From: an uncultured Candidatus Saccharibacteria bacterium | GTDB lineage: Bacteria > Patescibacteriota > Saccharimonadia > Saccharimonadales > Saccharimonadaceae | Length of the DNA: 42,165 nt | Direction of reading: 5' to 3' | Assembly (NCBI GenBank): GCA_964629385.1 | Contig: CAZVUR010000001.1 | Location: 1-42,165, forward strand | Shown here: piece after piece, positions 946 through 24,985 of the stretch | How positions within the stretch are numbered: the first letter of the stretch is position 1 | Layout: each line of letters opens with the position of its first letter | Made by a program: the position numbers and the translations under genes | The notes under the pieces: model-generated | Seen by the model: only the letters and a program-made list of their open reading frames with translations | Told to the model about the DNA's origin: nothing | The model's database searches: none

Positions 946-1012
946 TTTCTTCAGGGGTGGATTTTAATAGAGTAATTCGCTATAATTGCTCATGCACTTT
1001 ACTTCATAGTAT

Positions 1013-1087
1013 TGGGGTGTCGCCAAGTGGTAAGGCACATGGTTTTGGTCCATGCATTCGGGGGTTCGAATCCCTCCACCCCAGCCA
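1013..1087 (+). tRNA. tRNA-Gln (anticodon UUG), CCA encoded
   Basis: Hand-folded cloverleaf: acceptor TGGGGTG/CACCCCA with U1:A72, G73-CCA, anticodon loop TTTTGGT, T-loop GGTTCGAATCC. Near-identical in outline to E. coli tRNA-Gln. Confidence 0.9.
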
Positions 1088-1108
1088 TGAGTCTTCGAAT
1101 AGACAGAT

Positions 1109-1145
1109 GCAGAGGTGAACACTTCGTTCACCTCTGTTATTTTTG
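1109..1145 (+). terminator. Intrinsic terminator after tRNA-Gln
   Basis: Hairpin GCAGAGGTGAAC-acttc-GTTCACCTCTG followed by TTATTTTT. Confidence 0.6.
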
Positions 1146-1963
1146 TGCAATCAGGGGTTCCAGAAACAATATCTGCGTAAGTTGGTGCTTTGTTAAATAT
1201 TAGCCCAAAATACTTCGCTTGTAGCACCGGATTACAGTGGTGAAGTAGTAGTTCATCCAGGTGTTCCAGAAAATATCTGACTCGTTGCATAATTTCCTCC
1301 ATATTGTTAGGTTTCTGTGGTTTTTGTACCTTTCTCTCGTCTTCGAGTTGTCTGATTTCAACTTCCAGTTTTGCAATATCCTCCTCCATATACTTGATTG
1401 CTGTTTCTGAGTTTAAGAACTTTATCTTATCGACTGATTGACGGATTTGACCGTACAGCTCAGTAAGGCGTAAATCTATGGCTACCGCAGTCGCATGTTC
1501 GGCTAGAAGTTGTTTATCAAAAGCCGTGCCGACTGCGCTCATGAGTGCATCAATGTAATCATCCGAGATGCGCAGATTCTTCACAAAGTTCTCAATCGTC
1601 GCGTCAAACTCCTTCTTTGTTTTGCGGAAATAGTGACCTCGATGATCGCAGTGATAAGCAGGATAGTAACCGCCGTGACGGCCGCGCGAGGCACTACCAT
1701 AAAGCGGTTTTTCGCACTCAGGACACATCACGATGCGCTTGTAAGGGAACTCCGAATTTTTTACGCCCTTATTAAGGAGATGTTCCGGTATCTTACGTCT
1801 GGTGATTGTAATTTCACTTCCACTCTCCGTAATTACAAACTTGTCTCGATTAGCTTTGTTCCATATCGATACAGAGATGAGGCCATCAAATTGGCAACGG
1901 ACTGGTTTGCCCTGCGTCCATTTCTCGGGATTAATGCCAGCGTACACAGGATTCTCAAAAGGC

Positions 1964-1992
1964 TTGATGTTTATACCCCTAGGGGGTATTAT
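1964..1992 (+). promoter_or_regulatory. csoR promoter with a CsoR-type operator in the spacer
   Basis: TTGATG (1964-1969), 17 nt, TATTAT (1987-1992). The spacer holds the GC palindrome ATACCCC-tag-GGGGTAT (1973-1989). The ATG at 1999 lies ~7 nt after the -10, suggesting a leaderless mRNA. Confidence 0.55.
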
Positions 1993-1998
1993 TGAAGT

Positions 1999-2268
1999 AT
2001 GAAGAAAGAGCTAAAGCCACGCGCGATTCGTCGTCTTAAGATTATCGAAGGTCAGATTCGCGGCCTGCAAAAAATGGTCGAAGAAGACAAGTACTGTATC
2101 GACATTATTACCCAGGCCTCGGCAATTAAAGAGGCACTATCCGGCGTCGAAGATTTATTGCTTGAGAATCACTTGAGTACCCATGTTATTCACCAGATTA
2201 AAAGCGGTGAGGATGCGCAGGCGACCGAAGAGATTCTAAAAGTATATAAATTGAAGCGAAAAAAATAA
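1999..2268 (+). CDS. csoR: CsoR/RcnR-family metal-sensing transcriptional repressor
   Basis: 89 aa with RRLKIIEGQIRGLQKMVEEDKYCIDIITQ...ENHLSTHV, the typical DUF156 architecture. Sits upstream of a P1B ATPase. Confidence 0.85.
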   Translation: MKKELKPRAIRRLKIIEGQIRGLQKMVEEDKYCIDIITQASAIKEALSGVEDLLLENHLSTHVIHQIKSGEDAQATEEILKVYKLKRKK

Positions 2269-2294
2269 GTATAGGGATTTAGGAGGGGTAAGAA

Positions 2295-4526
2295 ATGGCA
2301 AAGTACACATGTCCGATGCATCCAGACGTTACGAGCAATGAACCGGGTTTATGTCCGAAATGCAACATGAATCTTGTATCGGATGATGGCACAGAAGATA
2401 AAACCGACGATGATCATGGTCACAGCAACTCATCGGTCACAGCGCATAACAGCGTATACGCTTGTCCTATGCATCCAGATGTTACATCGGATAACCCAGG
2501 TATGTGTCCAAAGTGCCACATGGCACTCGAAAAGAAGAAGCAATCATCACATGCTCAGCACGACCATCATGACAAGCATGCTGGTCACAACCCAAACATG
2601 TTTAGGCAGAAGTTTTGGATTAGTTTGCTACTGACTATTCCGACATTGATATTTTCTCCGATGATACAGGGTTGGTTTGGGGTTAATCTGACATTTACTG
2701 GTAGTGAATATATCTCAGCAATCTTCGGCATCATTATATTCTTTTACGGTGGCATGGTGTTTCTAAAAAGTGCCAAAGCGGAGCTTGCGGCTCGACAGCC
2801 GGGTATGATGACACTGATTTCGATGGCGATAACAGTGGCGTTTGTCTATAGTACGCTCGTAACGCTCAAGCTCGTTAACGGCATGGACTTTTGGTGGGAA
2901 CTTGCCACACTGGTGACGATTATGTTGCTCGGACATTGGCTAGAAATGGCATCAGTGGAAAGTGCCCAGGGCGCACTCAACGAGCTTGCCAAACTGCTGC
3001 CTGATGAAGCGGAGCTGATCGAACATGGAAAAAGTCGCAAGGTCTCGGTAAGTCAGCTTAAGGTAGGTGATTCTGTATTGGTTCGCCCCGGCGCGCAGGT
3101 TCCGGTAGATGGAAAAGTCATCAAAGGTAGTTCTGAGGTTAACGAATCAATGCTAACCGGTGAATCAAAGCCGGTGAAGAAAACAGTCGGAGCTGAGGTT
3201 ATTGGTGGGACGATTAATGCAAATGGTGCTTTAACGATTGAAGTTACGAAAGTTGGCGGCGATACGACGCTGGCCGGCATTATGAAACTGGTTGAAGATG
3301 CCCAAACTAGCAAGTCAAAAACTCAAGTGCTGGCAGATAAAGCGGCCTTCTACCTGACATTTGTTGCGCTTGGTGCGGCACTCCTGACATGGATAGGCTG
3401 GTGGATGGCTGGTGCGTCGGCGGACTTTATTTTTGAACGAGTTGTCACCGTACTGGTAATTGCCTGTCCGCATGCGCTTGGTCTGGCTATTCCTCTCGTC
3501 ACGGCTATCTCTACGACACTCGCAGCGAAAAATGGGTTGCTGGTACGGGAACGTATGGCACTTGAATCGGCACGTAATATCGACGTCATACTATTTGATA
3601 AGACAGGCACGCTTACTAAGGGTGAGCAAGGCGTGGTTGGCATCCTCGCCAAAGACCAGAGCCGTACTTTGAGTATTGCTGCTGCACTTGAACGCGAATC
3701 AGAGCATCCGATTGCAAAAGCAATTTTCCAGTACGCACACGATCAAAATGTGCCGGAAACTCACACCACTGACTTTTCGGCACTTTCTGGCCGTGGTGTA
3801 CGAGCTAAAGTTGATGGCAAAACTGTGTATGTCGGCGGTCCGAGACTACTTGAAGAGTTGAAACTGAAGCTTGATAATGAATTACAAAAGGCAGCAGATG
3901 AAGCCTCAAACGACGGAAAAACAGTTGTGTATGTCGTCGAAAACGAGACCATTCTCGGTGCAATTATGCTAGCTGATGTTATCCGCGAAGAGTCCAAGGA
4001 GGCCGTTACTCGGCTGCACAGTATGGGCAAACGCGTTGCGATGCTAACAGGAGACAGTAAGGGCGTGGCGGCTTGGGTTGCCAAAGAACTCGGCATCAAA
4101 GAGTACTTCGCCGAAGTCCTGCCGGAGAATAAAGCCGAAACGGTCAAGAAGCTACAGGCTGATGGCAGTCGAGTTGCCATGGTTGGCGACGGCGTGAACG
4201 ATGCGCCTGCACTAACACAGGCAAATATAGGCATTGCGATTGGTGCTGGTACGGACGTGGCGATTGAGTCGGCAGGTATCGTGCTAGCGAGCAGCGACCC
4301 GCGCGGTGTGGCGAAGATAGTCACGCTTTCAAAAGCAACCTACCGTAAGATGCTGCAAAACCTTGCCTGGGCAACTGGTTACAATGCCCTCGCGATTCCA
4401 TTGGCCGCTGGCGTCACTTCGGCATTTGGTTTTGTCCTCTCGCCAGCATTAGGGGCAGTACTAATGTCACTTTCGACGATTATTGTTGCTATCAATGCTC
4501 AGTTCTTACGACGGATTAAATTATAA
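2295..4526 (+). CDS. copB: Heavy-metal (copper) translocating P1B-type ATPase, CPH-type with a His-rich N-terminus
   Basis: DKTGTLT, GDGVNDAP, TGES and a transmembrane CPH motif (VIACPHALGL). The N-terminus has two CPMHPDVTS..CPKC fingers and His-rich stretches. Confidence 0.9.
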   Translation: MAKYTCPMHPDVTSNEPGLCPKCNMNLVSDDGTEDKTDDDHGHSNSSVTAHNSVYACPMHPDVTSDNPGMCPKCHMALEKKKQSSHAQHDHHDKHAGHNPNMFRQKFWISLLLTIPTLIFSPMIQGWFGVNLTFTGSEYISAIFGIIIFFYGGMVFLKSAKAELAARQPGMMTLISMAITVAFVYSTLVTLKLVNGMDFWWELATLVTIMLLGHWLEMASVESAQGALNELAKLLPDEAELIEHGKSRKVSVSQLKVGDSVLVRPGAQVPVDGKVIKGSSEVNESMLTGESKPVKKTVGAEVIGGTINANGALTIEVTKVGGDTTLAGIMKLVEDAQTSKSKTQVLADKAAFYLTFVALGAALLTWIGWWMAGASADFIFERVVTVLVIACPHALGLAIPLVTAISTTLAAKNGLLVRERMALESARNIDVILFDKTGTLTKGEQGVVGILAKDQSRTLSIAAALERESEHPIAKAIFQYAHDQNVPETHTTDFSALSGRGVRAKVDGKTVYVGGPRLLEELKLKLDNELQKAADEASNDGKTVVYVVENETILGAIMLADVIREESKEAVTRLHSMGKRVAMLTGDSKGVAAWVAKELGIKEYFAEVLPENKAETVKKLQADGSRVAMVGDGVNDAPALTQANIGIAIGAGTDVAIESAGIVLASSDPRGVAKIVTLSKATYRKMLQNLAWATGYNALAIPLAAGVTSAFGFVLSPALGAVLMSLSTIIVAINAQFLRRIKL

Positions 4527-4537
4527 GGAGCTAACCC

Positions 4538-5488
4538 ATGCATAACCACGACGAACACGAACATCATCACCATCATCATAATACTGACACTGCTGATATT
4601 CCTGCCGACCGTATGGCCGTCTGTCCAGTAACAGGCGACGCAATCGATACAGCAGAAGCTGAAAAGCTTGGACATTTCAGGGACGTGGACGGCCAGCGAA
4701 TGTATTTGTGCTGCGATACATGTGTACAGCTGTTCGATAAAAATCCTGAGCAGTACGTAGATCATCATCTTGGCCACGAACATCACCGGCATATTCCGAC
4801 AACAGGCACACTTCGCTTGAAGGAAAAAGAACACCTGACAGATAATGTTTGGGCGTTTCGTTTCACTACCGACCAGCCGCTATCGTGGACACCGGGTCAA
4901 TTCATTCGTATTGAAATTCCTCATGACAACCCTGACGGTGAAGGCACTAAACGATGGTTCACTATCTCATCAACGCCACATGATGGCTTTATCCAAATCA
5001 CGACTCGTGTGACCGATACTTCGTTTAAGCGAGCATTAGCTGCTCTCGAAGTTGGCGAAAAAGTACAGCTCATCGAGCAGCCAGATGGCGATTTTGTCTG
5101 GAAAGAGAGCGATAAGCCGTTAATATTCGTCGCAGGAGGTATCGGGATTACACCATTTTACAGCATGCTGAGGGCGCAAGGTCATAGCAGGCTACCGGTA
5201 TCTGCTACGCTTATCTACAATGGACGAACAGAGGATTTACCATTTAAGACAGAGTTTGAAGAAGCAAGTAAGCGTCATCCGGAGTTTACCGTGCATTATA
5301 TTATCGGTGAGCCAGTTAGCATCGAAAAGCTGACTGAAATTGTACCAGCCATCAACACATCACAAGTTTATATTTCAGGCCCCGAATCAATGGTTGAGAC
5401 ACTCGGCAAACAGTTAGAAGACAATGGGTTGGCTAGCAATAATCTCCATCAAGATTTCTTTCCTCATTACAACGAAGCGAATTACTAG
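4538..5488 (+). CDS. His-rich/YHS metal-binding domain fused to a ferredoxin-NADP reductase-like flavoprotein
   Basis: N-terminal HEHHHHHH and a YHS-like CPVTGD...YLCCDTCVQLF. C-terminal RWFTISS (RxYS-like FAD motif) and GGIGITP (NAD(P) motif). Confidence 0.7.
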   Translation: MHNHDEHEHHHHHHNTDTADIPADRMAVCPVTGDAIDTAEAEKLGHFRDVDGQRMYLCCDTCVQLFDKNPEQYVDHHLGHEHHRHIPTTGTLRLKEKEHLTDNVWAFRFTTDQPLSWTPGQFIRIEIPHDNPDGEGTKRWFTISSTPHDGFIQITTRVTDTSFKRALAALEVGEKVQLIEQPDGDFVWKESDKPLIFVAGGIGITPFYSMLRAQGHSRLPVSATLIYNGRTEDLPFKTEFEEASKRHPEFTVHYIIGEPVSIEKLTEIVPAINTSQVYISGPESMVETLGKQLEDNGLASNNLHQDFFPHYNEANY

Positions 5489-5527
5489 AAATATGACACA
5501 TGGTGCTACTTACGGTAAAATAAAGAT

Positions 5528-5902
5528 ATGAAGAGAGTCTTCCGTGGAATTGTTTCGGTGTTCATGCTGACAGTGCTTAGCGTACTGTCGTTAGGTGTAC
5601 ACGCAGCCGCAGCACAGACGATGAACATGAAGCACTCGATGGGGGGTGCATCCCATCAGATGAGCTCATCTAGCTGTTTTACTGCATGCACGACAGCAAC
5701 ACTCCACAAGGAGGACATTCTCAAAGATAGTGAAAAGGATGAGGACGATGAGCTCCAGCCTCCGTTTTATGTCCAATTTCAAGCATCGCCCATGTTGGCT
5801 TCGGAGGAAATACATCGTCAAGAGGCAAAGTCTGCCATAGATCGAGAGCCACCTCCTGGCGGCGCACCTGCTTATATAGAGCTGGCTGTTTTTCGCGCCT
5901 GA
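5528..5902 (+). CDS. Secreted Met/His-rich hypothetical protein in the copper island
   Basis: Signal-peptide-like N-terminus (VFMLTVLSVLSLGVHAAAA) followed by QTMNMKHSMGGASHQM. No recognisable family. Confidence 0.45.
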   Translation: MKRVFRGIVSVFMLTVLSVLSLGVHAAAAQTMNMKHSMGGASHQMSSSSCFTACTTATLHKEDILKDSEKDEDDELQPPFYVQFQASPMLASEEIHRQEAKSAIDREPPPGGAPAYIELAVFRA

Positions 5903-5950
5903 GAATCACTATTTATGCATATTTGATAAATAGTTAACTTAGGAGTAACC

Positions 5951-6619
5951 ATGAACAATAAGAAATTCTTTACTATAATTGCTGCTGTGATTGTTTTGGC
6001 AGTCGGCGGTGCCGCACTGTATTACGGTCTACGTGGCGACACAACTGCGCCGAATAGTTCTGATATGTCCGGTATGAACCACTCTATGAACAATAGTGAC
6101 TCATTAGTTGACACGAGTAGTACTACTTACAAGCAGTACGCAGCTCTGACGGGAGAAGAATATGACCGGAACTTCATTGCTAATATGATTGTTCATCATG
6201 AGGGCGCTGTTAGTATGGCCGAACTTGCATTAGCCAATGCGAAACATCAGGAGTTTAAAGACATGGCAAATGACATCATCTCTGCTCAAAATGAAGAAAT
6301 TAGCCAGATGAAGTCATGGCAGCAGGCTTGGGGCTATCCATCATCAAGTGGGGATAATATGATGGATCACTCTGCAATGGGTATGATGAGTGAGATGTCC
6401 GGAATGGAAGACGCACTAAAAGGCAAAACTGGTGATGAATTCGATAAGGCGTTTATCGAGCAAATGGTTATGCACCATCAATCAGCGATAGACATGGCTG
6501 GACCTGGTGAAGAGAATGCCGAGCATGAAGAACTGGGAGATTTAACAAAAGCCATTGTCGTCGCGCAGACAAAAGAAATTAAACAAATGAAACAATGGCA
6601 GTCTGACTGGGGCTACTAA
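5951..6619 (+). CDS. DUF305 domain protein (two repeats), membrane anchored
   Basis: Two copies of FIxxMIxHHxxAxxMA (FIANMIVHHEGAVSMA, FIEQMVMHHQSAIDMA) and a ...QMKxWQxxWGY ending. Confidence 0.8.
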   Translation: MNNKKFFTIIAAVIVLAVGGAALYYGLRGDTTAPNSSDMSGMNHSMNNSDSLVDTSSTTYKQYAALTGEEYDRNFIANMIVHHEGAVSMAELALANAKHQEFKDMANDIISAQNEEISQMKSWQQAWGYPSSSGDNMMDHSAMGMMSEMSGMEDALKGKTGDEFDKAFIEQMVMHHQSAIDMAGPGEENAEHEELGDLTKAIVVAQTKEIKQMKQWQSDWGY

Positions 6620-7227
6620 TGAAACGAGCGCTAGTAGCAGGCTTTCTAGCTGTGGCTGCATTGGGTGTAGCGGGTTGGTTCTTATTCAAAGGCCAACCTG
6701 CGTCAACACCCAGAGAGGCCAACGGTAACGCTCAAAGGCAAGAACAGACCTCGAACCCGAACGAACATGACTTCTTTGATGTTGACTTTTCTCGAAAGAT
6801 GATTGTTCACCACCAGCAGGCCATAGAAATGACCGATGCGATACTGGTGACTTCAGCAAATCCAACGATTCGCGAGCTTGCTACTTCGATACGCCAGAAA
6901 CAGTCTGAAGCCGAGCAGCGGTATAAGGACTGGCTGAATGAGTGGGGTGAAACGTATACCAATTTATCGGACTTCCCACAAATGGACGGGCATGATATGT
7001 ATCCATCGTATCCGGGCTTAGTGCCCGCAGCGAGTATGAGTAAGCTTAAGTCTGCAGCGGGCACCGAAGCAGATGAGCTGTTCGTAAGCTTAATCACCGT
7101 ACACCATCAAGGCGGCATCGAGATAGGTGAAATGAGTAGGAAACTTCAGTACGGCAAGCTCATCGAATATAAGAATAAAGTCTTTAAAAGCTATCAAGAC
7201 GACCTTGATAGGCTCAAGTTGTTATAA
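6619..7227 (+). CDS. DUF305 domain protein
   Basis: FSRKMIVHHQQAIEMT and FVSLITVHHQGGIEIG motifs. Its start overlaps the previous stop codon. Confidence 0.75.
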   Translation: MKRALVAGFLAVAALGVAGWFLFKGQPASTPREANGNAQRQEQTSNPNEHDFFDVDFSRKMIVHHQQAIEMTDAILVTSANPTIRELATSIRQKQSEAEQRYKDWLNEWGETYTNLSDFPQMDGHDMYPSYPGLVPAASMSKLKSAAGTEADELFVSLITVHHQGGIEIGEMSRKLQYGKLIEYKNKVFKSYQDDLDRLKLL

Positions 7228-7237
7228 AGGAGCATGA

Positions 7238-7894
7238 ATGAAGATTAGTAGGAATAAGATATTCATAGTCATTGTGACTATACTAGCGATTGTTGCCGCA
7301 GCCATTTGGTATTTTGGTGTGTTTTCGATTAAGCCCGAGAAGGTCACTCCCGCTAACGATGCAGCAAAAACAAAGCAGACTAAGGAACAAGTTTCGGATA
7401 GTAAGTTTGCAACACTTACAGGCGATGCCTTTGATGAGGCCTTCATCGCTGATATGCTTGCTCATCACGATGGAGCAATCACTATGTCGGAGCAGGCACA
7501 AGCTATGACGGCACATGAGGAAATTAGAACTCTCGCCGGTAATATTACGCAAGCGCAATCAATGGAAATGATTCAAATGCGTGAATGGCAGCAAGCATGG
7601 GGCTTTAAGATCACGAATAGTGGCGGTCACATGAGTCATGGCGGAGGCGGAATGGAGATGGCGGGCGACATGGTTGAGATGCAAAACAAACTAAATGATT
7701 TAACTGGTGAAGCTTATGACAAGGAATTTCTTAAGCAAATGATCCTTCATCACGAGCAAGCCGTAGATATGGCTAAATATGCGGACAGTAATGCCAAGCG
7801 TCAAGAGATAAAAGACTTAGCCAGTGTCATCATTACGGCCCAAAAAGCAGAAATACAACAGATGAAACAGTGGCAAGATAGCTGGGGCTACTAG
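7238..7894 (+). CDS. DUF305 domain protein (two repeats), membrane anchored
   Basis: FIADMLAHHDGAITMS and FLKQMILHHEQAVDMA motifs. Ends QMKQWQDSWGY like the 5951 gene. Confidence 0.8.
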   Translation: MKISRNKIFIVIVTILAIVAAAIWYFGVFSIKPEKVTPANDAAKTKQTKEQVSDSKFATLTGDAFDEAFIADMLAHHDGAITMSEQAQAMTAHEEIRTLAGNITQAQSMEMIQMREWQQAWGFKITNSGGHMSHGGGGMEMAGDMVEMQNKLNDLTGEAYDKEFLKQMILHHEQAVDMAKYADSNAKRQEIKDLASVIITAQKAEIQQMKQWQDSWGY

Positions 7895-7897
7895 TAC

Positions 7898-8302
7898 ATG
7901 CATAACAAGAGTACGATCATATTTTTAGTAATTTTCTTGCTACTACTAGGGGCTATTGGTAGTGGTATTTGGACGGCGCTTAACAATCGTCAAGCTCAGC
8001 CAACTCATGACACGCAAACCTCCGATGAGGCCAAAGTGTTTACGCAAAATGAGGTTGCCGAACATGCGACAAAGGATGATTGCTGGACGATTATTTCTGG
8101 TGACGTATACGATCTGACAAAGTTCATCAACCGCCATCCTGGTGGTAATGAAATACTTCGAGCATGTGGTGTGGACGCTACTGATCTATTTAACTCTCGA
8201 ATGACTACCGCTGGCCAGCCTGTCGGCTCGGGTTCCCCGCACAGTCAAGTGGCACGCGAGCAGTTGGCGCAACTAAAAATTGGAGTATACAGTCAAGAAT
8301 AA
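7898..8302 (+). CDS. Membrane-anchored cytochrome b5-like heme-binding domain protein
   Basis: N-terminal TM helix, then EVAEHATKDDCWTIISGDVYDLTKFINRHPGG, which is the cyt b5 HPGG motif. Confidence 0.75.
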   Translation: MHNKSTIIFLVIFLLLLGAIGSGIWTALNNRQAQPTHDTQTSDEAKVFTQNEVAEHATKDDCWTIISGDVYDLTKFINRHPGGNEILRACGVDATDLFNSRMTTAGQPVGSGSPHSQVAREQLAQLKIGVYSQE

Positions 8303-8467
8303 TCAAGAAACAGTCAGCCTTAGCAGGTTTACGTCATCGTTTGCGGCAAAATAGAATAGTTTTGTGTCGTTATTGATTTTCATTACATATTTAATCTTTT
8401 TTAACAAAGTTTTAAAAATACGTAGTAGAATTTGCAATATTACCAAAAGTGTTACAAATACTCATGA

Positions 8468-8497
8468 GTTCGAAACACGTCCACTAGCCCCATACCA
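8468..8497 (+). repeat. tRNA-3'-end-like core repeat, copy 0 (diverged)
   Basis: GTTCGAAACACGTCCACTAGCCCCATACCA. Compare the tRNA-Gln 3' end GTTCGAATCCCTCCACCCCAGCCA and the other core copies. Confidence 0.6.
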
Positions 8498-8500
8498 TTA

Positions 8501-8532
8501 TTGACAAATAATACAACTTATGCTAATATAAT
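8501..8532 (+). promoter_or_regulatory. Near-consensus sigma70 promoter P1 driving GC-rich cassette 1
   Basis: TTGACA (8501-8506), 17 nt, TAATAT (8524-8529) with TG at 8521-8522. An alternative TATAAT lies at 8527-8532. Confidence 0.65.
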
Positions 8533-8595
8533 ATTGATGTCCTAGCTTTGGAATCCGAGATTTCTCCACTCGACAAGAGGAGGCGAGGAGTTAAC

Positions 8596-9039
8596 ATGAA
8601 CACGCAGACCCTGGTCGAGTTCGACCAGAGCCAGGCCCAGACCTACAACGCGCTCTACGTCGTGAAGCAGGCCGTTCTCGTTCCCGTCCCGGACGGCATC
8701 GAGACGGTCATCAACGCGGAGTGGGGCGAGGAGCAGAAGTTCGTCGGTGCCTGGTACGGCATCTACGTCGACGGCGCGATCGTCTACGGCTCCGCCAAGA
8801 AGGAGTTCGACGACAGCCACGGCAAGACCGACGAGCTCGAGAACGGGTACTTCAAGGACACGCCCATCAGCGCGTACCAGTACCACGGCCCGACCGCACG
8901 AGTCCAGACCGTCCTCGCGGACGGCACCGTCGAGACCGGGAACACCATCTCGGACGGCGACTGGCTCGTGAAGTGGCCGGCCGGCGAGGTCGGAGTCCTG
9001 AAGGACGACAACTTCCGCAAGCGCTACCAGGTCAACTGA
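8596..9039 (+). CDS. GC-rich foreign ORF 1a, hypothetical protein (147 aa)
   Basis: ATG at 8596 lies 5 nt after GAGGAG. G/C-dominated third codon positions. The C-terminal DGDWLVKWPAGEVGVL is weakly reminiscent of small phage-type PGDYG-like proteins (unverified). Confidence 0.7.
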   Translation: MNTQTLVEFDQSQAQTYNALYVVKQAVLVPVPDGIETVINAEWGEEQKFVGAWYGIYVDGAIVYGSAKKEFDDSHGKTDELENGYFKDTPISAYQYHGPTARVQTVLADGTVETGNTISDGDWLVKWPAGEVGVLKDDNFRKRYQVN

Positions 9040-9044
9040 TCCAC

Positions 9045-9185
9045 ATGAGGCGCAGGCTGAGGAGGATCAAGCACGGGATCTTCGGACACCCCCGCGAGGA
9101 CATGATCTTCGGCGACATGGTCGAAGGCAACACCTGCACGTCGTGTGGGTGGAACTTCAAGCGGGCCGACATCACCGTGGGCTGA
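9045..9185 (+). CDS. GC-rich foreign small ORF 1b (46 aa, CxxC)
   Basis: ATG lies 5 nt after the ORF 1a stop. Same G/C-rich third-position bias. Sequence MRRRLRRIKHGIFGHPREDMIFGDMVEGNTCTSCGWNFKRADITVG. Below the 60-aa track cutoff as a separate ORF. Confidence 0.5.
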   Translation: MRRRLRRIKHGIFGHPREDMIFGDMVEGNTCTSCGWNFKRADITVG

Positions 9186-9194
9186 CAACAACCC

Positions 9195-9298
9195 CAACTA
9201 CACCCTCAGGAGAGGAGAGCACCCGAGCATGGGAGCCCCTCGAATGAGGGTGCTTCCATATCTAAATGTTCCTGAAACACATCCACCAGCCCCAGCCA
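9195..9298 (+). repeat. Cassette 3' module M, copy A (GC-rich hairpin half plus AT-rich linker plus core copy 1 at 9268-9298)
   Basis: CAACTACACCCTCA...GGGAGCCCCTCGAATGAGGGTGCTTCC-ATATCTAAAT-GTTCCTGAAACACATCCACCAGCCCCAGCCA. Aligns with copies at 10073 and 10627. Confidence 0.8.
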
Positions 9299-9363
9299 AG
9301 CTTAAGTATTATAAATAGGCCTTTTGGGTCTATTTTGTTATTATCGTTTTAGTGAAAAATTTA

Positions 9364-9495
9364 ATGAACAAAAAGATCGCAAATCAATCCAAGCGTAATA
9401 TTCTTTTCCTATACATATTATTTTTTGTTGGAGTTCTGATTTTTCTTTACGCAATTTTTGTGACATTGCGATACGTTCTTACTGAATCTTGGTAG
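9364..9495 (+). CDS. Small hydrophobic peptide (43 aa), native AT-rich composition
   Basis: MNKKIANQSKRNILFLYILFFVGVLIFLYAIFVTLRYVLTESW. One TM helix. The stop lies 5 nt before core copy 2. No clear RBS was seen. Confidence 0.35.
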   Translation: MNKKIANQSKRNILFLYILFFVGVLIFLYAIFVTLRYVLTESW

Positions 9496-9500
9496 TATTC

Positions 9501-9530
9501 TTCCTGAAACACATCCACTAGCCCCAGCCA
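9501..9530 (+). repeat. tRNA-3'-end-like core repeat, copy 2
   Basis: TTCCTGAAACACATCCACTAGCCCCAGCCA. It is followed by AAGACGCTTATGGTTTAAAT, which matches the trailer after copy 5 (10923-10941). Confidence 0.8.
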
Positions 9531-9578
9531 AGACGCTTATGGTTTAAATACTTCATTCGGAAGTCTATTTGTTTATGC

Positions 9579-9608
9579 TTGCAATTCCTTATTATTAAAC
9601 GGTAATCT
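9579..9608 (+). promoter_or_regulatory. Sigma70-like promoter P2 driving GC-rich cassette 2
   Basis: TTGCAA (9579-9584), 18 nt, TAATCT (9603-9608). The composition jump at ~9617 coincides with the predicted +1. Confidence 0.5.
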
Positions 9609-9645
9609 ATATTTACACGTTCCACACCGAGCTAAGGAGAGTGCG

Positions 9646-10089
9646 ATGGACGTGAGTATCAAACCAGCAGATAAGCAGGCGCGTGAGGCAGTCATCAAGG
9701 CGCGCGAAGACAAGGAGGCTGCTCGGGTTGCGCGCAAAGAGAAGCGCAAGAAGCGGAAGGCCGAGAAGCGAGACCCGGTCGTTGCCAAACGGCTCAGGCG
9801 GCGGATCGAGAAAGAAGTTCTCGCTGATCTTCTCACCGAGAAGCGGTGCTACCTCAATGCTCAGCCTTCGACCGGCCAGTATGTGATCGACACGCGAATT
9901 CGCTACGGCTGGACGCTGAAGCGGAAGTGGCGTTACGACAAAGACACCGTCGAGCGAATCTTCCTGGAAGTGCTCGCAAGTCACAACGGTTTCGAGCACA
10001 AGGCCGACTACCGTTGTCAGGGCCCGTGGTGGTGTGTCCGAATCGATGTTCAGTACACCCTGCTGGACCACTCAAGTACACCCTCATGA
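9646..10089 (+). CDS. GC-rich foreign ORF 2, hypothetical (147 aa): Lys/Arg/Glu-rich N-terminal half, Trp/Cys-containing C-terminal domain
   Basis: ATG lies 6 nt after AAGGAGAG. G/C-rich third positions. The last codons and the TGA lie inside module M copy B. Confidence 0.7.
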   Translation: MDVSIKPADKQAREAVIKAREDKEAARVARKEKRKKRKAEKRDPVVAKRLRRRIEKEVLADLLTEKRCYLNAQPSTGQYVIDTRIRYGWTLKRKWRYDKDTVERIFLEVLASHNGFEHKADYRCQGPWWCVRIDVQYTLLDHSSTPS

Positions 10090-10172
10090 GAGGAGACGCG
10101 ACCAAGTTGGGAGCCCCTCGAATGAGGGTGCTTCCATATCTAAATGTTCCTGAAACACATCCACTATCCCCA
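10073..10172 (+). repeat. Cassette 3' module M, copy B (core copy 3 at 10146-10172, truncated before GCCA)
   Basis: Identical to copy A over GGGAGCCCCTCGAATGAGGGTGCTTCCATATCTAAATGTTCCTGAAACACATCCAC. Runs directly into promoter P3. Confidence 0.8.
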
Positions 10173-10188
10173 ATTGTGGGTTAGATGA

Positions 10189-10217
10189 TTGACATAATAT
10201 TATTTATTTGTTATAAT
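10189..10217 (+). promoter_or_regulatory. Consensus sigma70 promoter P3 driving GC-rich cassette 3
   Basis: TTGACA (10189-10194), 17 nt, TATAAT (10212-10217) with TG at 10209-10210. Confidence 0.75.
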
Positions 10218-10267
10218 ATATTTAAGACGTGACTTTCACGTCCGAACCGAGTGAGAAAGGCATTCAG

Positions 10268-10615
10268 ATGCCGAAGTACGCGTTCAACAGCAAGAAGATT
10301 GTCGACCTCGTCGACGAGGACGAGGACTTGGTCCGGATCCTGGACCAGAAGACGGTTCGGGCTGACAACGTCCAGATCAAGGGCTACCCGACCAAGATGG
10401 ACGGCCATCTCTACCCCGTCAACTTCGTGCTCACCACTTCGAGCTACTACTACGAGGTCTCCATCTACCTGGAGACCGCCGAGATCCAGAAGTGCGACAT
10501 CTCCAGCTCCAGCGTGATCGAGTCCGACGTGTTCACTGCGCTGGACGACTTCACCGAGAAGCTGATGGCAATCCTCGAGGAGGTCGAGTCCGCCGAGAAG
10601 ATCGCCGCCGTCTGA
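10268..10615 (+). CDS. GC-rich foreign ORF 3, acidic hypothetical protein (115 aa)
   Basis: ATG at 10268 lies after GAGAAAGG. 19 of the first 20 codons end in G/C (hand count). The track ORF begins at an upstream GTG (10229) that lacks an RBS. Confidence 0.7.
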   Translation: MPKYAFNSKKIVDLVDEDEDLVRILDQKTVRADNVQIKGYPTKMDGHLYPVNFVLTTSSYYYEVSIYLETAEIQKCDISSSSVIESDVFTALDDFTEKLMAILEEVESAEKIAAV

Positions 10616-10626
10616 ATCAGCTCGCT

Positions 10627-10733
10627 CAACTACACCCTCATGAAAGGACAAGCGCCTGCAACAATGGAGCTCCTCGATTGAGGGTGCTTCCATTTGTAAA
10701 TTCTTCCTGAAACACATCCACTAACCCCAGCCA
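10627..10733 (+). repeat. Cassette 3' module M, copy C (core copy 4 at 10704-10733)
   Basis: CAACTACACCCTCATGAAAGGA...GGAGCTCCTCGATTGAGGGTGCTTCC-ATTTGTAAATTC-TTCCTGAAACACATCCACTAACCCCAGCCA. The hairpin arms are preserved through C-to-T (G:U) changes. Confidence 0.8.
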
Positions 10734-10734
10734 T

Positions 10735-10768
10735 AGAAAAAGACTGAGCATCTGCTCGGTCTTTTTCT
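10735..10768. terminator. Strong bidirectional-looking hairpin terminator
   Basis: AGAAAAAGACTGAGC-atct-GCTCGGTCTTTTTCT, a ~15 bp stem flanked by an A-run and a T-run. Confidence 0.65.
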
Positions 10769-10769
10769 A

Positions 10770-10904
10770 TAACTCGGGCCGGGACTACGAGCCCCCGATG
10801 CTTTTGCAAAGCAAAAGTCGGGGAGTTCGGCGTAGCGCAGCGATGATAAGAAAGCACCGAAGGTATTTTCTTATCAAGCAAGCGGAGGAGGCCTCATGGC
10901 AGAT
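10770..10904 (+). other. GC-rich structured non-coding segment abutting the tRNA-Gln 3'-end repeat (probable element-side arm of an att junction)
   Basis: No credible ORF. Hairpins CCCCGA..GCTTTTGC-aaa-GCAAAAG..TCGGGG and GATAAGAAA-12 nt-TTTCTTATC. Confidence 0.4.
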
Positions 10905-10922
10905 ATCCCTCCACCCCAGCCA
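10905..10922 (+). repeat. Exact 18-nt direct repeat of the tRNA-Gln 3' end (core copy 5, putative attR)
   Basis: ATCCCTCCACCCCAGCCA is identical to 1070-1087. Confidence 0.85.
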
Positions 10923-10936
10923 AGATGCTTATGTTT

Positions 10937-10962
10937 AAAATGACGAGAAATCGTCATTTTTT
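10937..10962 (+). terminator. Intrinsic terminator, likely the displaced original tRNA trailer terminator
   Basis: AAAATGACGA-gaaa-TCGTCATTTT followed by TT. Confidence 0.6.
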
Positions 10963-10971
10963 ATTGCTAAA

Positions 10972-11388
10972 ATGATAAGTATGAAATCAGTCGCTAAGCT
11001 TTTAATCAAGAATGGTAATGAGTTTTTAATGATGTACAGGAGTGATCATCCAACCTTTGGTATTGACCCTGATCTACCTGGCGGAACAGTGGAAGGAAGC
11101 GAGACCGTACTTCAAACCATGCTGAGAGAAGTCTACGAGGAGATCGGTGTAGTAGTTGAATCAAGTAAAGCTAGTGAAATATTCTCAGGTAACGACTATT
11201 CGGCACATGGGACTTACTATTCTCTGTTTATTACAGAGGTCGAGGACAAACCAGAGATACGCATGAGCTGGGAGCACTCATCGTATGAGTGGCTCAAGGA
11301 GTCGGAGTTTATAGAAAAGGCGGCTAGCGCAAAAGATACCTATATGCACATGGTTAGTGAGGTTCTAGCGTCGTATTCAATGTCATAA
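10972..11388 (+). CDS. NUDIX hydrolase
   Basis: Nudix box GGTVEGSETVLQTMLREVYEEIGV. Native composition. The start may be the ATG at 10981. Confidence 0.8.
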   Translation: MISMKSVAKLLIKNGNEFLMMYRSDHPTFGIDPDLPGGTVEGSETVLQTMLREVYEEIGVVVESSKASEIFSGNDYSAHGTYYSLFITEVEDKPEIRMSWEHSSYEWLKESEFIEKAASAKDTYMHMVSEVLASYSMS

Positions 11389-11390
11389 TA

Positions 11391-11420
11391 TTCCTGAAAC
11401 ACATCCACTAGTTCCAGCCA
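11391..11420 (+). repeat. tRNA-3'-end-like core repeat, copy 6
   Basis: TTCCTGAAACACATCCACTAGTTCCAGCCA begins 2 nt after the NUDIX stop codon. Confidence 0.75.
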
Positions 11421-11435
11421 CGCTAAAGCATTACA

Positions 11436-11469
11436 AGTAAGTGCCAGAGAAATCCGGCACTTACTATTT
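11436..11469. terminator. Hairpin terminator between the convergent NUDIX and hsp20 genes
   Basis: AGTAAGTGCC-10 nt-GGCACTTACT followed by ATTT. Confidence 0.5.
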
Positions 11470-11477
11470 AGCGCAGC

Positions 11478-11807
11478 TTAGCTTTCAATAGCAATCTGCT
11501 TTGGCTTTGGTAGTTCTTTAAACTGGATAGATACTTTCAGAACACCATCTTTCATCTTAGCCTTAATAGATTCTTCATCTGCAGCTTCTGGCAAGCGAAT
11601 GCTGCGGTAAAAGCTTGAAGAGCTTTCGCGCACAATATACTTTTTGTCTTTATCCTTTTCTTTCTCATGTCGCTCGGCACGAATAACCAAGTTTCCTTTG
11701 TCAACATTAATAGTTACGTCTTTTTGATCAAAATTAGGTAAATGTGCTTCGACATGAAGTTCTTTGTCGTCTTTTGACGTATAAACATCTGTTGCTGGCA
11801 GTTGCAT
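11478..11807 (-). CDS. Hsp20/alpha-crystallin small heat-shock protein. The coding region probably extends upstream to ~11888-11900.
   Basis: Alpha-crystallin domain (VDKGNLVIRAERH...FYRSIRLP...DGVLKVSI). The in-frame upstream sequence encodes KFDPFAEIQALQKQFFSDDWF, typical of an Hsp20 N-terminus, and has no ATG. Confidence 0.8.
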   Translation of the reverse strand: MQLPATDVYTSKDDKELHVEAHLPNFDQKDVTINVDKGNLVIRAERHEKEKDKDKKYIVRESSSSFYRSIRLPEAADEESIKAKMKDGVLKVSIQFKELPKPKQIAIES

Positions 11808-23681: not shown

Positions 23682-23772
23682 ACTAGTGATTTTGAGAGTT
23701 GAGGCTCGTATTCTGTGCTGTACAATTTGAGGTAAAGCGTAGTATACGCGCCTCCTGTCAAAATCGAACTTT

Positions 23773-24316
23773 GACAGGATGGTGCCTTAGTGCGAACGGG
23801 CAGGGATCCGAGGACTCGTAACATTGTTCTCGCAGAAGATTCATTCTCTGTCCGTTCGACCAAACCTCCGGGCGTGGTGGGGCCCGAGACCCATTGCGCC
23901 CGGAGCCAAGTGCCCAGGCGGGCACGGTGCAAAACGAGGAGGGAGCAGCCGTCACACGCTGACAATTCTCGATGGAGGAACACCGTGTCCGCCTGTGGCC
24001 CATGCGAATGGCTACATGGCAGTGCTCCTTGTATCCGGGACTTCCGGAGCAAGCGTTCAATATACGACACCTTGAGAGGAGGTGATCGCATGGCAACCAC
24101 CGAGGAGACCAGGCAGGCCATCATGGCCGTCTCCAACGGCCAGGCCAGCAGGGAGCAGCAGGAGATCGCAAGGCGCGCGGCTCAGCAGGCTGGCTCCATG
24201 GGCAACAGTGCCCGGGAGGCCTTCAAGGGCAAGAAGTGAGCCAGCGAGGGCGATCATCTTCGCAGTGGGGGCGGGCTTACCCAGCCGCCCCCACCCGAGA
24301 CTGGTACCATCCTGTC
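23773..24316 (+). other. GC-rich cargo of unit 4, enclosed by a 14-bp long-range helix
   Basis: GACAGGATGGTGCC (23773-23786) is complementary to GGTACCATCCTGTC (24303-24316) with one G:U. It contains a ~300-nt structured leader plus a small ORF. Confidence 0.6.
24090..24239 (+). CDS. GC-rich foreign small ORF 4 (49 aa)
   Basis: ATG lies 5-6 nt after GAGAGGAGGTG. Sequence MATTEETRQAIMAVSNGQASREQQEIARRAAQQAGSMGNSAREAFKGKK with G/C-rich third positions. The in-frame upstream stretch from 23790 looks non-coding. Confidence 0.55.
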   Translation: MATTEETRQAIMAVSNGQASREQQEIARRAAQQAGSMGNSAREAFKGKK

Positions 24317-24365
24317 CGTCTCACATTACACATGAATTATTCGTGTGCAGCGTGAGACGTTTTTA
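24317..24365 (+). terminator. Intrinsic terminator of unit 4
   Basis: CGTCTCAC...GTGAGACG followed by TTTTT. The left arm GTCTCACATT is shared with the unit 5 terminator. Confidence 0.7.
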
Positions 24366-24394: not shown

Positions 24395-24650
24395 CTATTT
24401 TACTTGGTCGAGTAGGCAACGAACATATCGAGTGATATGTTTTGAACGCGGTTTGTTCGTTGTCTATTCCTAAGTGTTTTTTAACAGGAATAGCGTACAA
24501 GAATTCACCGGGGTATCCCCGTTGCCTTGGTGAATGGGGTATCATTCTTCGCAGCGGCTTACGCAGTCTGCTCCGATAGTGGTCTGCAATGGCTTCTAGA
24601 GTGGAGAACGATACAGGGTGCTGAGTCCGGCTCGGCAAAGCACCCACCCG

Positions 24651-24723
24651 GGGGCGTTGGCGCAGATGGTAGCGCGCTCACCTAATACGTGAGAGGTCGC
24701 AGGTTCGAGCCCTGTGCGTCCCA
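24651..24723 (+). tRNA. GC-rich tRNA with anticodon AAU (formally Ile), CC but not CCA encoded
   Basis: Hand-folded canonical cloverleaf: GGGGCGT/GCGTCCC acceptor (two G:U), U8, GCGC/GCGC D-stem with G18G19, CTCAC/GTGAG anticodon stem, loop CTAATAC, T-loop TTCGAGC, discriminator A. Confidence 0.7.
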
Positions 24724-24795
24724 CCGGAACAAGCAGGCCGCAAAAGGAGTCGGCCGTCGTGCTTTCCTCGCTCGGTATGCACACTTGTTCCATCC

Positions 24796-24834
24796 GGGAC
24801 CGGAGGCTTCGCACATACCGTTGCCTCCGGTCCC
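24796..24834 (+). other. 12-bp perfect GC hairpin downstream of the GC-rich tRNA (high-GC-style terminator or processing hairpin)
   Basis: GGGACCGGAGGC-15 nt-GCCTCCGGTCCC with no T-run. Confidence 0.5.
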
Positions 24835-24985
24835 GCCCCACCCAAAGCTTCTCATTTATCGGCGCCAACCACCTGTTTAGTGGCGCGACGATAACTAGGA
24901 GGGGAGACCCCGGGCCCTTCTCTGTTTGCCGCTGCGCGGGAACGGTCCGGGGAACTTCCCTTGCTCTAAGACGCTATTCCTGTGT

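Follow-up and report, generated by a model that had tools for sequence, protein, structure and literature searches.

What has accumulated behind the tRNA-Gln gene of an uncultured Candidatus Saccharibacteria bacterium, a single integrated island or many small units that arrived one after another? The window, by which we mean the whole 42,165-nt stretch that was analysed, comes from a genome of about 45% GC and begins close to this gene, whose 3' end is imitated several times further downstream. A preliminary description read two exact copies of that end as the attL and attR sites of one ~9.8 kb island, and offered either repeated integration with displaced fossil tRNA ends or an integron-like array for the remaining imitations. 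We consider it rather probable that the region from 1013 to 11477 is an accretion array anchored on tRNA-Gln and built by serial site-specific insertion at CCCAGCCA. Both of the readings offered earlier came near to what comparison with other genomes reveals, although the array is not a canonical integron.

The anchor is a tRNA-Gln(UUG) gene on the plus strand (1013-1087; ttg call by ARAGORN, 61.4 bits for the Rfam tRNA family). Its last 18 nt, ATCCCTCCACCCCAGCCA, occur exactly twice, at 1070-1087 and at 10905-10922, as first described; 0.01 copies are expected by chance and two were reached in none of 100 shuffles. A longer relative, the 30-mer TTCCTGAAACACATCCACTAGCCCCAGCCA, is present with at most two mismatches at 9269, 9501, 10704 and 11391, and its 21-nt core GAAACACRTCCACYANYYCCA marks six sites, all on the plus strand (8472, 9274, 9506, 10152, 10709 and 11396; 0.02 expected). 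The six 30-mers start at 8463, 9269, 9501, 10147, 10704 and 11391, within 1-5 nt of where they had been placed, and the 42-kb window holds no further core outside 8463-11420. Two copies are imperfect: the one at 8463 is divergent (GTTCGAAACACGTCC...CCCCATACCA) and the one at 10147 has lost its final 6 nt. Each 30-mer had been said to follow a stop codon by 2-5 nt or to follow a repeated module called M. This is true of five copies (5 nt past the TAG at 9493-9495 for the 9501 copy, 2 nt past the TAA of a NUDIX gene for the 11391 copy, directly after M for three others) and fails for the 8463 copy, which has no credible open reading frame (ORF) before it. Terminator-like hairpins were computed after 1087, 9298 and 10922 and seen by eye after 9530, 10733 and 11420, so that the claim of hairpins behind most copies stands, and the trailers after 9530 and 10922 are indeed alike.

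The segment from 8468 to 11420 is therefore, as proposed, an alternation of repeats and cassettes, with the NUDIX gene in one of the cassettes. In fact, the whole 9.8 kb between the two 18-mers reads not as one island but as a stack of seven or more units with boundaries of their own, because the distal 18-mer belongs to a module, E, that adjoins tRNA-Gln in other genomes. The unit nearest the tRNA, 1088-8492, is a decayed serine-recombinase/copper element. All units that follow lie on the plus strand. Cassette A (8493-9298) has a promoter at 8501-8529, two high-GC ORFs (8596-9039, 147 aa; 9045-9185, 46 aa), M at 9195-9268 and a 30-mer at 9269-9298. Cassette B (9299-9530) opens with a trailer and terminator (9299-9340), encodes a 47-aa membrane protein (9352-9495) and ends in a 30-mer of consensus sequence (9501-9530). 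Cassette C (9531-10176) starts with a tRNA-Gln-type trailer and hairpin (9531-9575), continues with a high-GC ORF (9646-10089) and finishes with M (10073-10146) and a 30-mer whose 3' end is degenerate (10147-10176). Cassette D (10177-10733) carries a perfect sigma-70-type promoter (10189-10217; 12 of 12 matches plus TG), a high-GC ORF (10268-10615), the variant module M' (10625-10703) and a 30-mer (10704-10733). Module E (10734-10922), non-coding and recognised through homologous modules at other loci, ends in the second 18-mer (10905-10922). Cassette F (10923-11420), which lies outside the interval bounded by the 18-mers, joins a conserved trailer, terminator and promoter that we call T(ii) (10923-10962) to the NUDIX hydrolase gene (10972-11388, Pfam match) and a 30-mer (11391-11420); NUDIX genes are coupled to a 30-mer in two other arrays as well (L039 and L056; labels of this form denote our comparison loci). 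Cassettes A, C and D reach 58-67% GC against about 45% for the genome. A distal trailer with a hairpin (11421-11477) closes the array.

We scanned 185,579 species-representative genomes for exact matches to the first 18 nt of the 30-mer, TTCCTGAAACACATCCAC. This gave 69 loci, of which 34, from about 30 species, extend to the full 30-mer; all 34 belong to Saccharibacteria/Saccharimonadia or to unclassified metagenome-assembled genomes. The remaining loci (Planctomycetes, Chloroflexi and others) lack the full 30-mer and were set aside as chance matches. In the 8-kb windows around the 34 arrays (272 kb in total), anchoring and polarity are constant: tRNA-Gln, with UUG or CUG anticodon, lies upstream on the same strand in 21, most of the tRNA-less loci end within ~1.5 kb upstream of their first 30-mer, no tRNA of another type is present, and no 30-mer stands upstream of tRNA-Gln or on the opposite strand. 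The arrays contain one to five 30-mers spaced 232-2990 bp apart. Over 70 copies, 37 adjoin the stop codon of a co-oriented ORF at a gap of 1-13 nt, nine of them with a TGA stop within the TTCCTGA of the 30-mer itself. Hence the proposal that the 30-mers are tRNA-Gln 3'-end mimics marking integration into a tRNA gene is well supported, and the 30-mer does not behave as a dispersed genome-wide repeat, being absent from the rest of the 42 kb and co-oriented downstream of tRNA-Gln elsewhere. No true match was found in phage, plasmid and viral collections.

The cargo of these arrays is varied and mostly genome-specific. It includes short-chain dehydrogenases/reductases, small kinases, a glyoxalase, NUDIX and HIT hydrolases, a peptide deformylase, an APH-like (aminoglycoside-kinase-like) kinase, an ECF sigma/anti-sigma pair, pilin-like proteins, a defence-type SMODS cyclase with an Mrr nuclease, and insertion sequence (IS) elements. 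At the orthologous HK-GreA-tRNA-Gln(UUG) locus, a 66-aa cassette is found in L023/L041, two other cassettes in L025, two different ones again in L053 and the full stack in the window; a second common locus is occupied by one cassette in L004, by a three-unit array in L017 and by a large serine recombinase (LSR) element in L083/L134. Cassette turnover between species is therefore real. Consistently, the cassette families NUDIX, DUF2268, fam6, fam19, fam41 and fam42 occupy differing ranks across arrays. As a separate observation, L004 and L017, which by their flanks (fam21/22/12/23) are apparently the same locus, differ in that one species has tRNA-Gln(CUG) and the other tRNA-Gln(UUG), which suggests an anticodon switch or a replacement of the tRNA during recombination.

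How did so many genes come to share one 3' end? In a profile of 66 copies, the 30-mer is a conserved block that spans positions -1 to 30 and breaks off sharply at either side. Its sole free position is 21 (G in 37, A in 19, T in 9), the others being conserved at about 90% or better. The cassette proteins common to several genomes are 26-91% identical and the flanking housekeeping proteins 56-88%; the uniformity of the 30-mer beside such diverged proteins rules out a neutral decay of displaced tRNA ends. The fossil interpretation also conflicts with the presence of the same 30-mer in ~30 species whose tRNA-Gln ends differ. The 30-mer thus appears to be a conserved, selected site that the cassettes carry with them. 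Aligned by its right end with tRNA-Gln, it matches 16 of the last 25 positions (ATCC and CCCCAGCCA), and variants such as GTTCGAAACAC... retain similarity to the T-loop, as in L023 and in the divergent plus-strand copy of the window, GTTCGAAACACGTCCACTAGCCCCATACCA (8463-8492, found by sequence match). It looks like a diverged T-loop-to-CCA copy of the tRNA with a 5-nt expansion.

The position of the crossover is suggested by arrays in which mimic and resident tRNA disagree. In L010, L037, L049 and L060, position 22 of the 30-mers remains C although the resident tRNA carries a T there (...GCCCCAGCCA versus ...CCATCCCAGCCA in the same arrays), and therefore the crossover would fall within the last 8 nt, CCCAGCCA (1080-1087 in the window), the putative recombination core. 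This octamer is common to every tRNA-Gln variant and every mimic type. To its right, the 50-70 nt that follow tRNA-Gln and those that follow the 30-mers form one sequence family, with a ~19-nt spacer, a hairpin with a T-run and, ~10 nt ahead of the following ATG, a TGnTATAAT-like promoter; each unit is thereby flanked by a promoter before it and a terminator after it. The T(ii) trailer, AGATGATTATGCTTAAAATGACGAGAAATCGTCATTTTTTGTTTG, is shared by six species at 95-100% identity over 40-45 nt (the trailer of cassette F is matched in L055, L021, L004, L006 and L036). It is preceded by tRNA-Gln of either anticodon or by a 30-mer, and is therefore carried by mobile units. The native trailer of tRNA-Gln(CUG), an A.ATGCGACA...AAAATGAGACCC hairpin, occurs only after the last mimic of an array (L004, L022, L045, L055, L024, L021 and L038); therefore arrays were inserted between the last base of the tRNA and its original trailer. 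Beside these junctions, one array has a 41-nt duplication with a second partial tRNA-Gln end (GAAGAAATAT + ATCGAATCCCTCCATCCCAGCCA; L060, 1245-1302 and 4814-4876), which lies behind the tRNA and again behind a 30-mer, bracketing a 3.5-kb block. It would be a signature of multi-cassette insertion or of homologous exchange.

To explain these results we propose that mobile units enter one by one at the extreme 3' end of tRNA-Gln(UUG) by a crossover in CCCAGCCA. The incoming unit would supply a new trailer, terminator and promoter on the tRNA-proximal side, and its distal imitation of the tRNA-Gln end would remain as an attR-like scar. The tRNA would be restored each time, which would leave the site reusable, displace older units outward and keep the newest nearest the tRNA. 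Three classes of unit would have taken this route: single-gene cassettes with the 30-mer at their end (A, B, C, D and F), the non-coding E ending in a perfect 18-nt tRNA end, and an LSR element with copper cargo, now decayed, which as the most proximal unit would be the most recent. The 30-mer may be the recombinase-binding arm of the cassette attP; the cassettes may move as circles and the enzyme may act in trans. Homologous recombination between conserved junctions probably also shuffles cassettes. What is unusual here is the combination of minimal, promoter-bearing single-gene units without mobility genes, their tagging by one conserved asymmetric mimic and a portable trailer, terminator and promoter, and three mimic types with a single 8-nt core. 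It is conceivable, if somewhat short of probable, that Saccharibacteria have their own trans-acting, integron-like capture system, made of a dedicated recombinase (possibly an LSR overlapping tRNA ends) that would insert and excise promoter-bearing cassettes of one gene each, the 30-nt mimic with its portable trailer, terminator and promoter, the target CCCAGCCA, arrays exchanged between species, and E as a companion cassette for a structured RNA.

Module E, of ~190 nt, has homologs in eight other genomes. It lies 190-230 bp from tRNA-Gln in L024, L040 and L069 and behind a 30-mer in L058, L060, L021 and L034; the copy in L049 is shortened. It begins with a bidirectional terminator (~10737-10768), followed by a copy of the tRNA-Gln T-arm in inverted orientation (CCGAACyCCC ... 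GGGGrGTTCGG), which encloses a TTTTGC-NNN-GCAAAA hairpin, then by two covarying hairpins, in which structure is kept and sequence changed, and finally by GATATCCCTCCAyCCCAGCCA. Pairing in the predicted structure reaches 91.5% over six sequences, compared with 40-51% in slid controls; helix 7 shows compensatory changes in five of six pairs, and all one-sided changes turn C-G into U-G on the plus strand. No Rfam family matches E. A minus-strand tRNA, a tmRNA and a tRNA-primer binding site were considered and rejected, as ARAGORN and Rfam returned nothing and the G-U pattern favours the plus strand. E is probably a non-coding cassette encoding a plus-strand structured RNA that ends in a true tRNA-Gln tail, and its region 10769-10922 has the look of a structured RNA not described before. 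The 18-nt direct repeat thus marks E's own insertion, as a classical T-loop-type repeat later moved 9.8 kb outward, and the 18-mers are not the two ends of a single island as initially thought.

Which enzyme could insert such units? The LSR remnant of the window (964-1947, minus strand, 327 aa; weak Pfam Zn_ribbon_recom match) keeps the C-terminal two thirds of the protein, with zinc ribbon, coiled coil and C-terminus; the catalytic domain is gone. Its ORF runs antisense through the whole tRNA-Gln gene (...THGWGGGIRTPE...). It has 105 homologs, all from Patescibacteria where the source is named, and the full-length ones (450-580 aa) contain Resolvase (PF00239) and Recombinase (PF07508) domains. 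Of the 54 metagenome loci surveyed, about 40 have a convergent tRNA that touches or overlaps the 3' end of the LSR gene. All of the closest relatives (identity of 55% or more) occupy tRNA-Gln genes; more distant ones are found beside tRNA-Val, Trp, Tyr, Glu, Lys, Leu and Arg; LSR clades track at least eight different tRNA species. In the window and at 18 other loci where tRNA-Gln meets a recombinase gene, foreign DNA starts right after the CCA of the tRNA (...CCAGCCA followed by TGAGTC...), and the cassette trailers begin at the same base. The C-terminal residues T-H-G-W-G of the LSR are encoded by the tRNA tail in antisense, and it would seem that integration alters the protein's own tail, its C-terminus spanning the attachment site. 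Read antisense in the LSR frame, the 30-mer gives GGC TGG GGN TAG (G W G stop), with its free position 21 at the Gly wobble; together with the common junction base and the variant 30-mer at 8463 behind the window's element, this is a suggestive hint of an LSR link. Units are found between tRNA-Gln and the LSR element in L154, L086 and L080, and therefore the tRNA end stays usable after an LSR has landed. We tentatively regard the Patescibacteria LSR family that overlaps tRNA 3' ends as the best candidate for the cassette enzyme, though with low confidence.

Several leads around the recombinases proved to be of other kinds. Distal CCCAGCCA matches 2.5-2.8 kb from the tRNA in L090 and L087 lie inside a conserved protein gene (PQP.PDAYI) and are due to chance. 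A link to Replic_Relax was also dropped; Replic_Relax/TraG-like genes stand upstream of 30-mers in L005 and L051, and homologs stand beside LSR genes. A 6.6-kb block is 99.9% identical in two genomic contexts (L005, 726-7368; L152, 8808-15450); it encodes an IS1595 transposase, a Replic_Relax-like protein and some ten small enzymes and forms a mobile unit of its own in Saccharibacteria. Finally, at 10861-10914 of L080, a contig of the window's species, the recombinase remnant is joined to a tRNA-Gln mimic, GGTAGTAGGGTGTTCGCATCTGCACCCTCCGTCCCAGCCA, and not to tRNA-Gln. This is the only exception in the species; ahead of the mimic lies a gene similar to the last one of the tRNA-Val LSR element of L097. 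The junction might stem from an attP circle, a more recent insertion or a join made in assembly.

A number of observations weigh against serial site-specific insertion, most of them concerning the enzyme. Among the ORFs of the window, the only recombinase is the catalytically dead remnant, and none was seen in the ORFs of the 34 arrays, which were checked partly by inspection only. No 30-mer lies near an LSR gene in the 54 LSR loci or in L078/L079, with up to seven mismatches allowed and flanks followed as far as the contigs reach; nor does any of the ~70 copies form an attP-type junction between 30-mer and LSR. The only attP-like junction at this LSR, that of L080, carries a different mimic, GGGTGTTCGCATCTGCACCCTCCGTCCCAGCCA. 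HGWG-stop tails do not prove that the 30-mer is an attP arm, since tRNA-Gln(CUG) gives the same tail (L078, L079). The Replic_Relax genes of L005 provide no substitute, as they belong to the 6.6-kb IS1595 segment, which ends 53 nt before the 30-mer and is found elsewhere too. Under the standard rules for LSRs, sites of P-core-B' type should not recombine with attB. Dyad symmetry was absent from the 30-mer with its trailer and from the tRNA with its trailer, the best candidates reaching 8-10 of 22 positions with inconsistent centres, and the same symmetry scan gave no consistent dif-, lox- or LSR-like half-sites. The 30-mer is also rare, found in only ~30 species-level genomes, and as the seed of our scan it biases its own apparent share among the mimic types. 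In the window's species, 15 contigs carry the same array at 99.98% identity, several of them breaking inside repeats, and hold no empty site (tRNA-Gln...CCCAGCCA + AGATGCTTATGTTTAAAATGACGAG), no circle junction and no cassette difference. The preliminary description had regarded such a uniform layout as damaging; it is what all strains of this species show, and other species hold different cassettes.

Could a simpler process have produced the stack? Natural transformation followed by RecA exchange would need no dedicated recombinase if CCCAGCCA, the trailer/terminator/promoter and the 30-mer served as portable homology, rather like the minimal mobile elements of Neisseria. Saccharibacteria are reportedly naturally transformable, the junction modules (75-95 nt) of different species share 95-100% identity, no recombinase was found in cis, and the L060 duplication (CCCAGCCAGAAGAAATATATCGAATCCCTCCATCCCAGCCA) around its 3.5-kb block is compatible with such exchange. 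Such exchange would not account for the sharply delimited conservation of the 21 nt left of the core, where the tRNA side has no homology, nor for the way in which new genes gain a 30-mer 1-13 nt from their stop, nor for the identical joining base of three unrelated mimic types. We therefore find it unlikely as the sole process, and it could well operate alongside site-specific insertion. A role of the 30-mer mainly in RNA seems less likely still. As a tRNA-Gln-tail mimic in 3' untranslated regions, it might recruit tRNA 3'-processing or CCA factors, or protect or mark the mRNA, and it is strictly co-oriented with ORFs, directly after the stop and before a tRNA-type trailer and terminator; E, with its covariation and plus-strand G-U pairs, ends in a true tRNA tail. 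Yet the 30-mer has neither internal pairing nor a conserved upstream partner with which to mimic an acceptor or T-arm, no Rfam family matches, the copy at 8463 follows no ORF, and the exclusive linkage to tRNA-Gln and the native trailer at the array end would go unexplained.

The classical island of 9.8 kb, with the 18-mers as attL and attR and the inner 30-mers as incidental fossils, draws on the exact tRNA-end repeat and on the recombinase remnant beside the tRNA, and identity that starts in the T-loop is said to be typical of tRNA-integrating elements. We judge it very improbable. The distal 18-mer is part of E, which in L024, L040 and L069 sits 190-230 bp from the tRNA with its own proximal terminator; one 30-mer and the NUDIX cassette lie outside the proposed island and five more boundaries like those of other species' arrays lie inside it; and the att site has no functional integrase, only the 327-aa remnant without the resolvase catalytic domain. 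A canonical integron, or a CALIN, with promoterless attC-flanked cassettes moved by IntI, is scarcely credible despite the small, co-oriented, mostly single-gene accessory cassettes with a site-like repeat at each 3' end: the 42-kb window and the 8-kb surroundings of the 34 arrays contain neither IntI nor another tyrosine recombinase, the repeat is a conserved asymmetric 30 nt without attC-type dyad symmetry, the cassettes bear promoter-like sequences of their own, and entry is at a tRNA gene end and not at an attI. Serial insertion at the tRNA end thus remains our preferred account.

The most proximal unit deserves a closer description. Behind tRNA-Gln, a terminator-like hairpin with a T-run (1109-1137, plus strand; 12-bp stem, tail TATTTTTGTG) is embedded in the C-terminal coding sequence of the recombinase (ITEVNEVFTSA). 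The copper cargo, on the plus strand at 1999-8302, was assigned by Pfam and is also supported by the precomputed Pfam matches of identical genes in L135/L142. It comprises a CsoR repressor (1999-2268), a CopA-type P-type ATPase (2295-4526), a YHS + FAD/NAD reductase (4538-5488), a secreted 124-aa protein, three DUF305 proteins (5951-7894) and a cytochrome b5-like protein (7898-8302). Immediately before the CsoR gene, at the point where the recombinase is truncated, stands a perfect palindrome, ATACCCCTAGGGGGTAT (1972-1988), which we take to resemble known CsoR operators. The 30-mer at 8463 is, from its position only, the probable distal end, or attR-like scar, of this element. At the other end of the array, the closing hairpin is shared with a convergent Hsp20 gene (11478-11807, minus strand; precomputed Pfam).

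Module M, a ~75-nt element (CAACTACACCCTCA...GGAGCCCCTCGAATGAGGGTGCTTCCATATCTAAATG) with two alternative pairings, stands behind the high-GC ORFs, as described before, and recurs in L060, L017 and L150 (8611-8678). In L150, the promoter, ORFs and M of cassette A lie downstream of tRNA-Ser(GCT) without a 30-mer; M is therefore a component of the high-GC gene unit rather than of the tRNA-Gln system. It is no attC, and it encodes no conserved peptide, its reading frame being broken in copy D and in L060. The high-GC ORFs (8596-9039, 9646-10089 and 10268-10615) are driven by near-consensus AT-rich promoters and have no Pfam and no phage match; the 147-aa product, the only one of them searched for homologs, has these solely in Saccharibacteria-named or unnamed metagenome sources, at ~61% GC there. 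Elsewhere in the window are two further high-GC patches (0.59-0.69; 23750-24330 and 24520-24950), the second of which holds a GC-rich tRNA with the unusual anticodon AAT (Ile; 24651-24725) and no encoded CCA, and is possibly another foreign insert.

The genomes of Saccharibacteria and other Patescibacteria are tiny, and these organisms, which need host bacteria, are generally regarded as poor in mobile elements. A fixed and reusable entry point at tRNA-Gln would provide a concrete route for gene flow in Saccharibacteria. If a recombinase recognises the 75-nt junction, this would offer a landing pad and a cassette format for engineering bacteria that are hard to manipulate. The LSR family would represent natural tRNA-specific serine integrases, with at least eight tRNA targets, that code across their own attachment site.

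In full-text literature searches we found no description of such tRNA-Gln cassette arrays, the closest published model being the tycheposon island. In tycheposons, successive integrations displace older material outward, units are parted by partial tRNA copies, degenerate integrases and cargo accumulate, and integrase clades are specific for a tRNA, some of the integrases being large serine recombinases (Hackl et al., bioRxiv 10.1101/2020.12.28.424599). The window likewise has a tRNA-proximal island, units parted by tRNA-derived repeats and a degenerate integrase. It differs in that the array consists mostly of 0.2-1.5-kb single-gene cassettes without a mobility gene, the separator is one cross-species 30-nt mimic joined to a conserved trailer, terminator and promoter, the host belongs to a reduced-genome episymbiont lineage, the recombinase has a different architecture, and its gene overlaps the tRNA in antisense.

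Classical att sites in tRNA genes, which fall into the sublocation classes of Williams, restore the tRNA 3' end at attL and leave a repeat at attR. E and units in L060, L069 and L154 fit this pattern of serial integration, with an 18-27-nt tRNA-identical repeat from the T-loop, whereas in the 30-mer units identity with the tRNA is limited to CCCAGCCA (plus ATCC), the remainder being element-specific and conserved. Xer-dependent modules (IMEX at dif; pdif of Acinetobacter plasmids) lack an integrase, are moved in trans by a host recombinase and restore their target. The present arrays resemble them in their integrase-less units, restored target and stepwise build-up; in contrast, the 30-mer with its trailer has no dif-like 11-6-11 dyad, and the target is a tRNA gene end and not the dif of the terminus. 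REP- or MITE-like repeats are scattered over a genome in either orientation, whereas the 30-mers are confined to 8463-11420 in this stretch and co-oriented downstream of tRNA-Gln in other genomes. With integrons, finally, the array shares ordered, co-oriented small accessory cassettes of diverse cargo, a 3' site on each, one fixed entry and the newest cassette most proximal. Unlike integrons, it has no integrase in cis, its site is a 30-nt asymmetric sequence and not a folded palindromic attC, its cassettes bring their own promoters and terminators, and entry is through the last 8 nt of a tRNA gene. Thus, it looks like an undescribed, integron-like gene collection at a tRNA gene.

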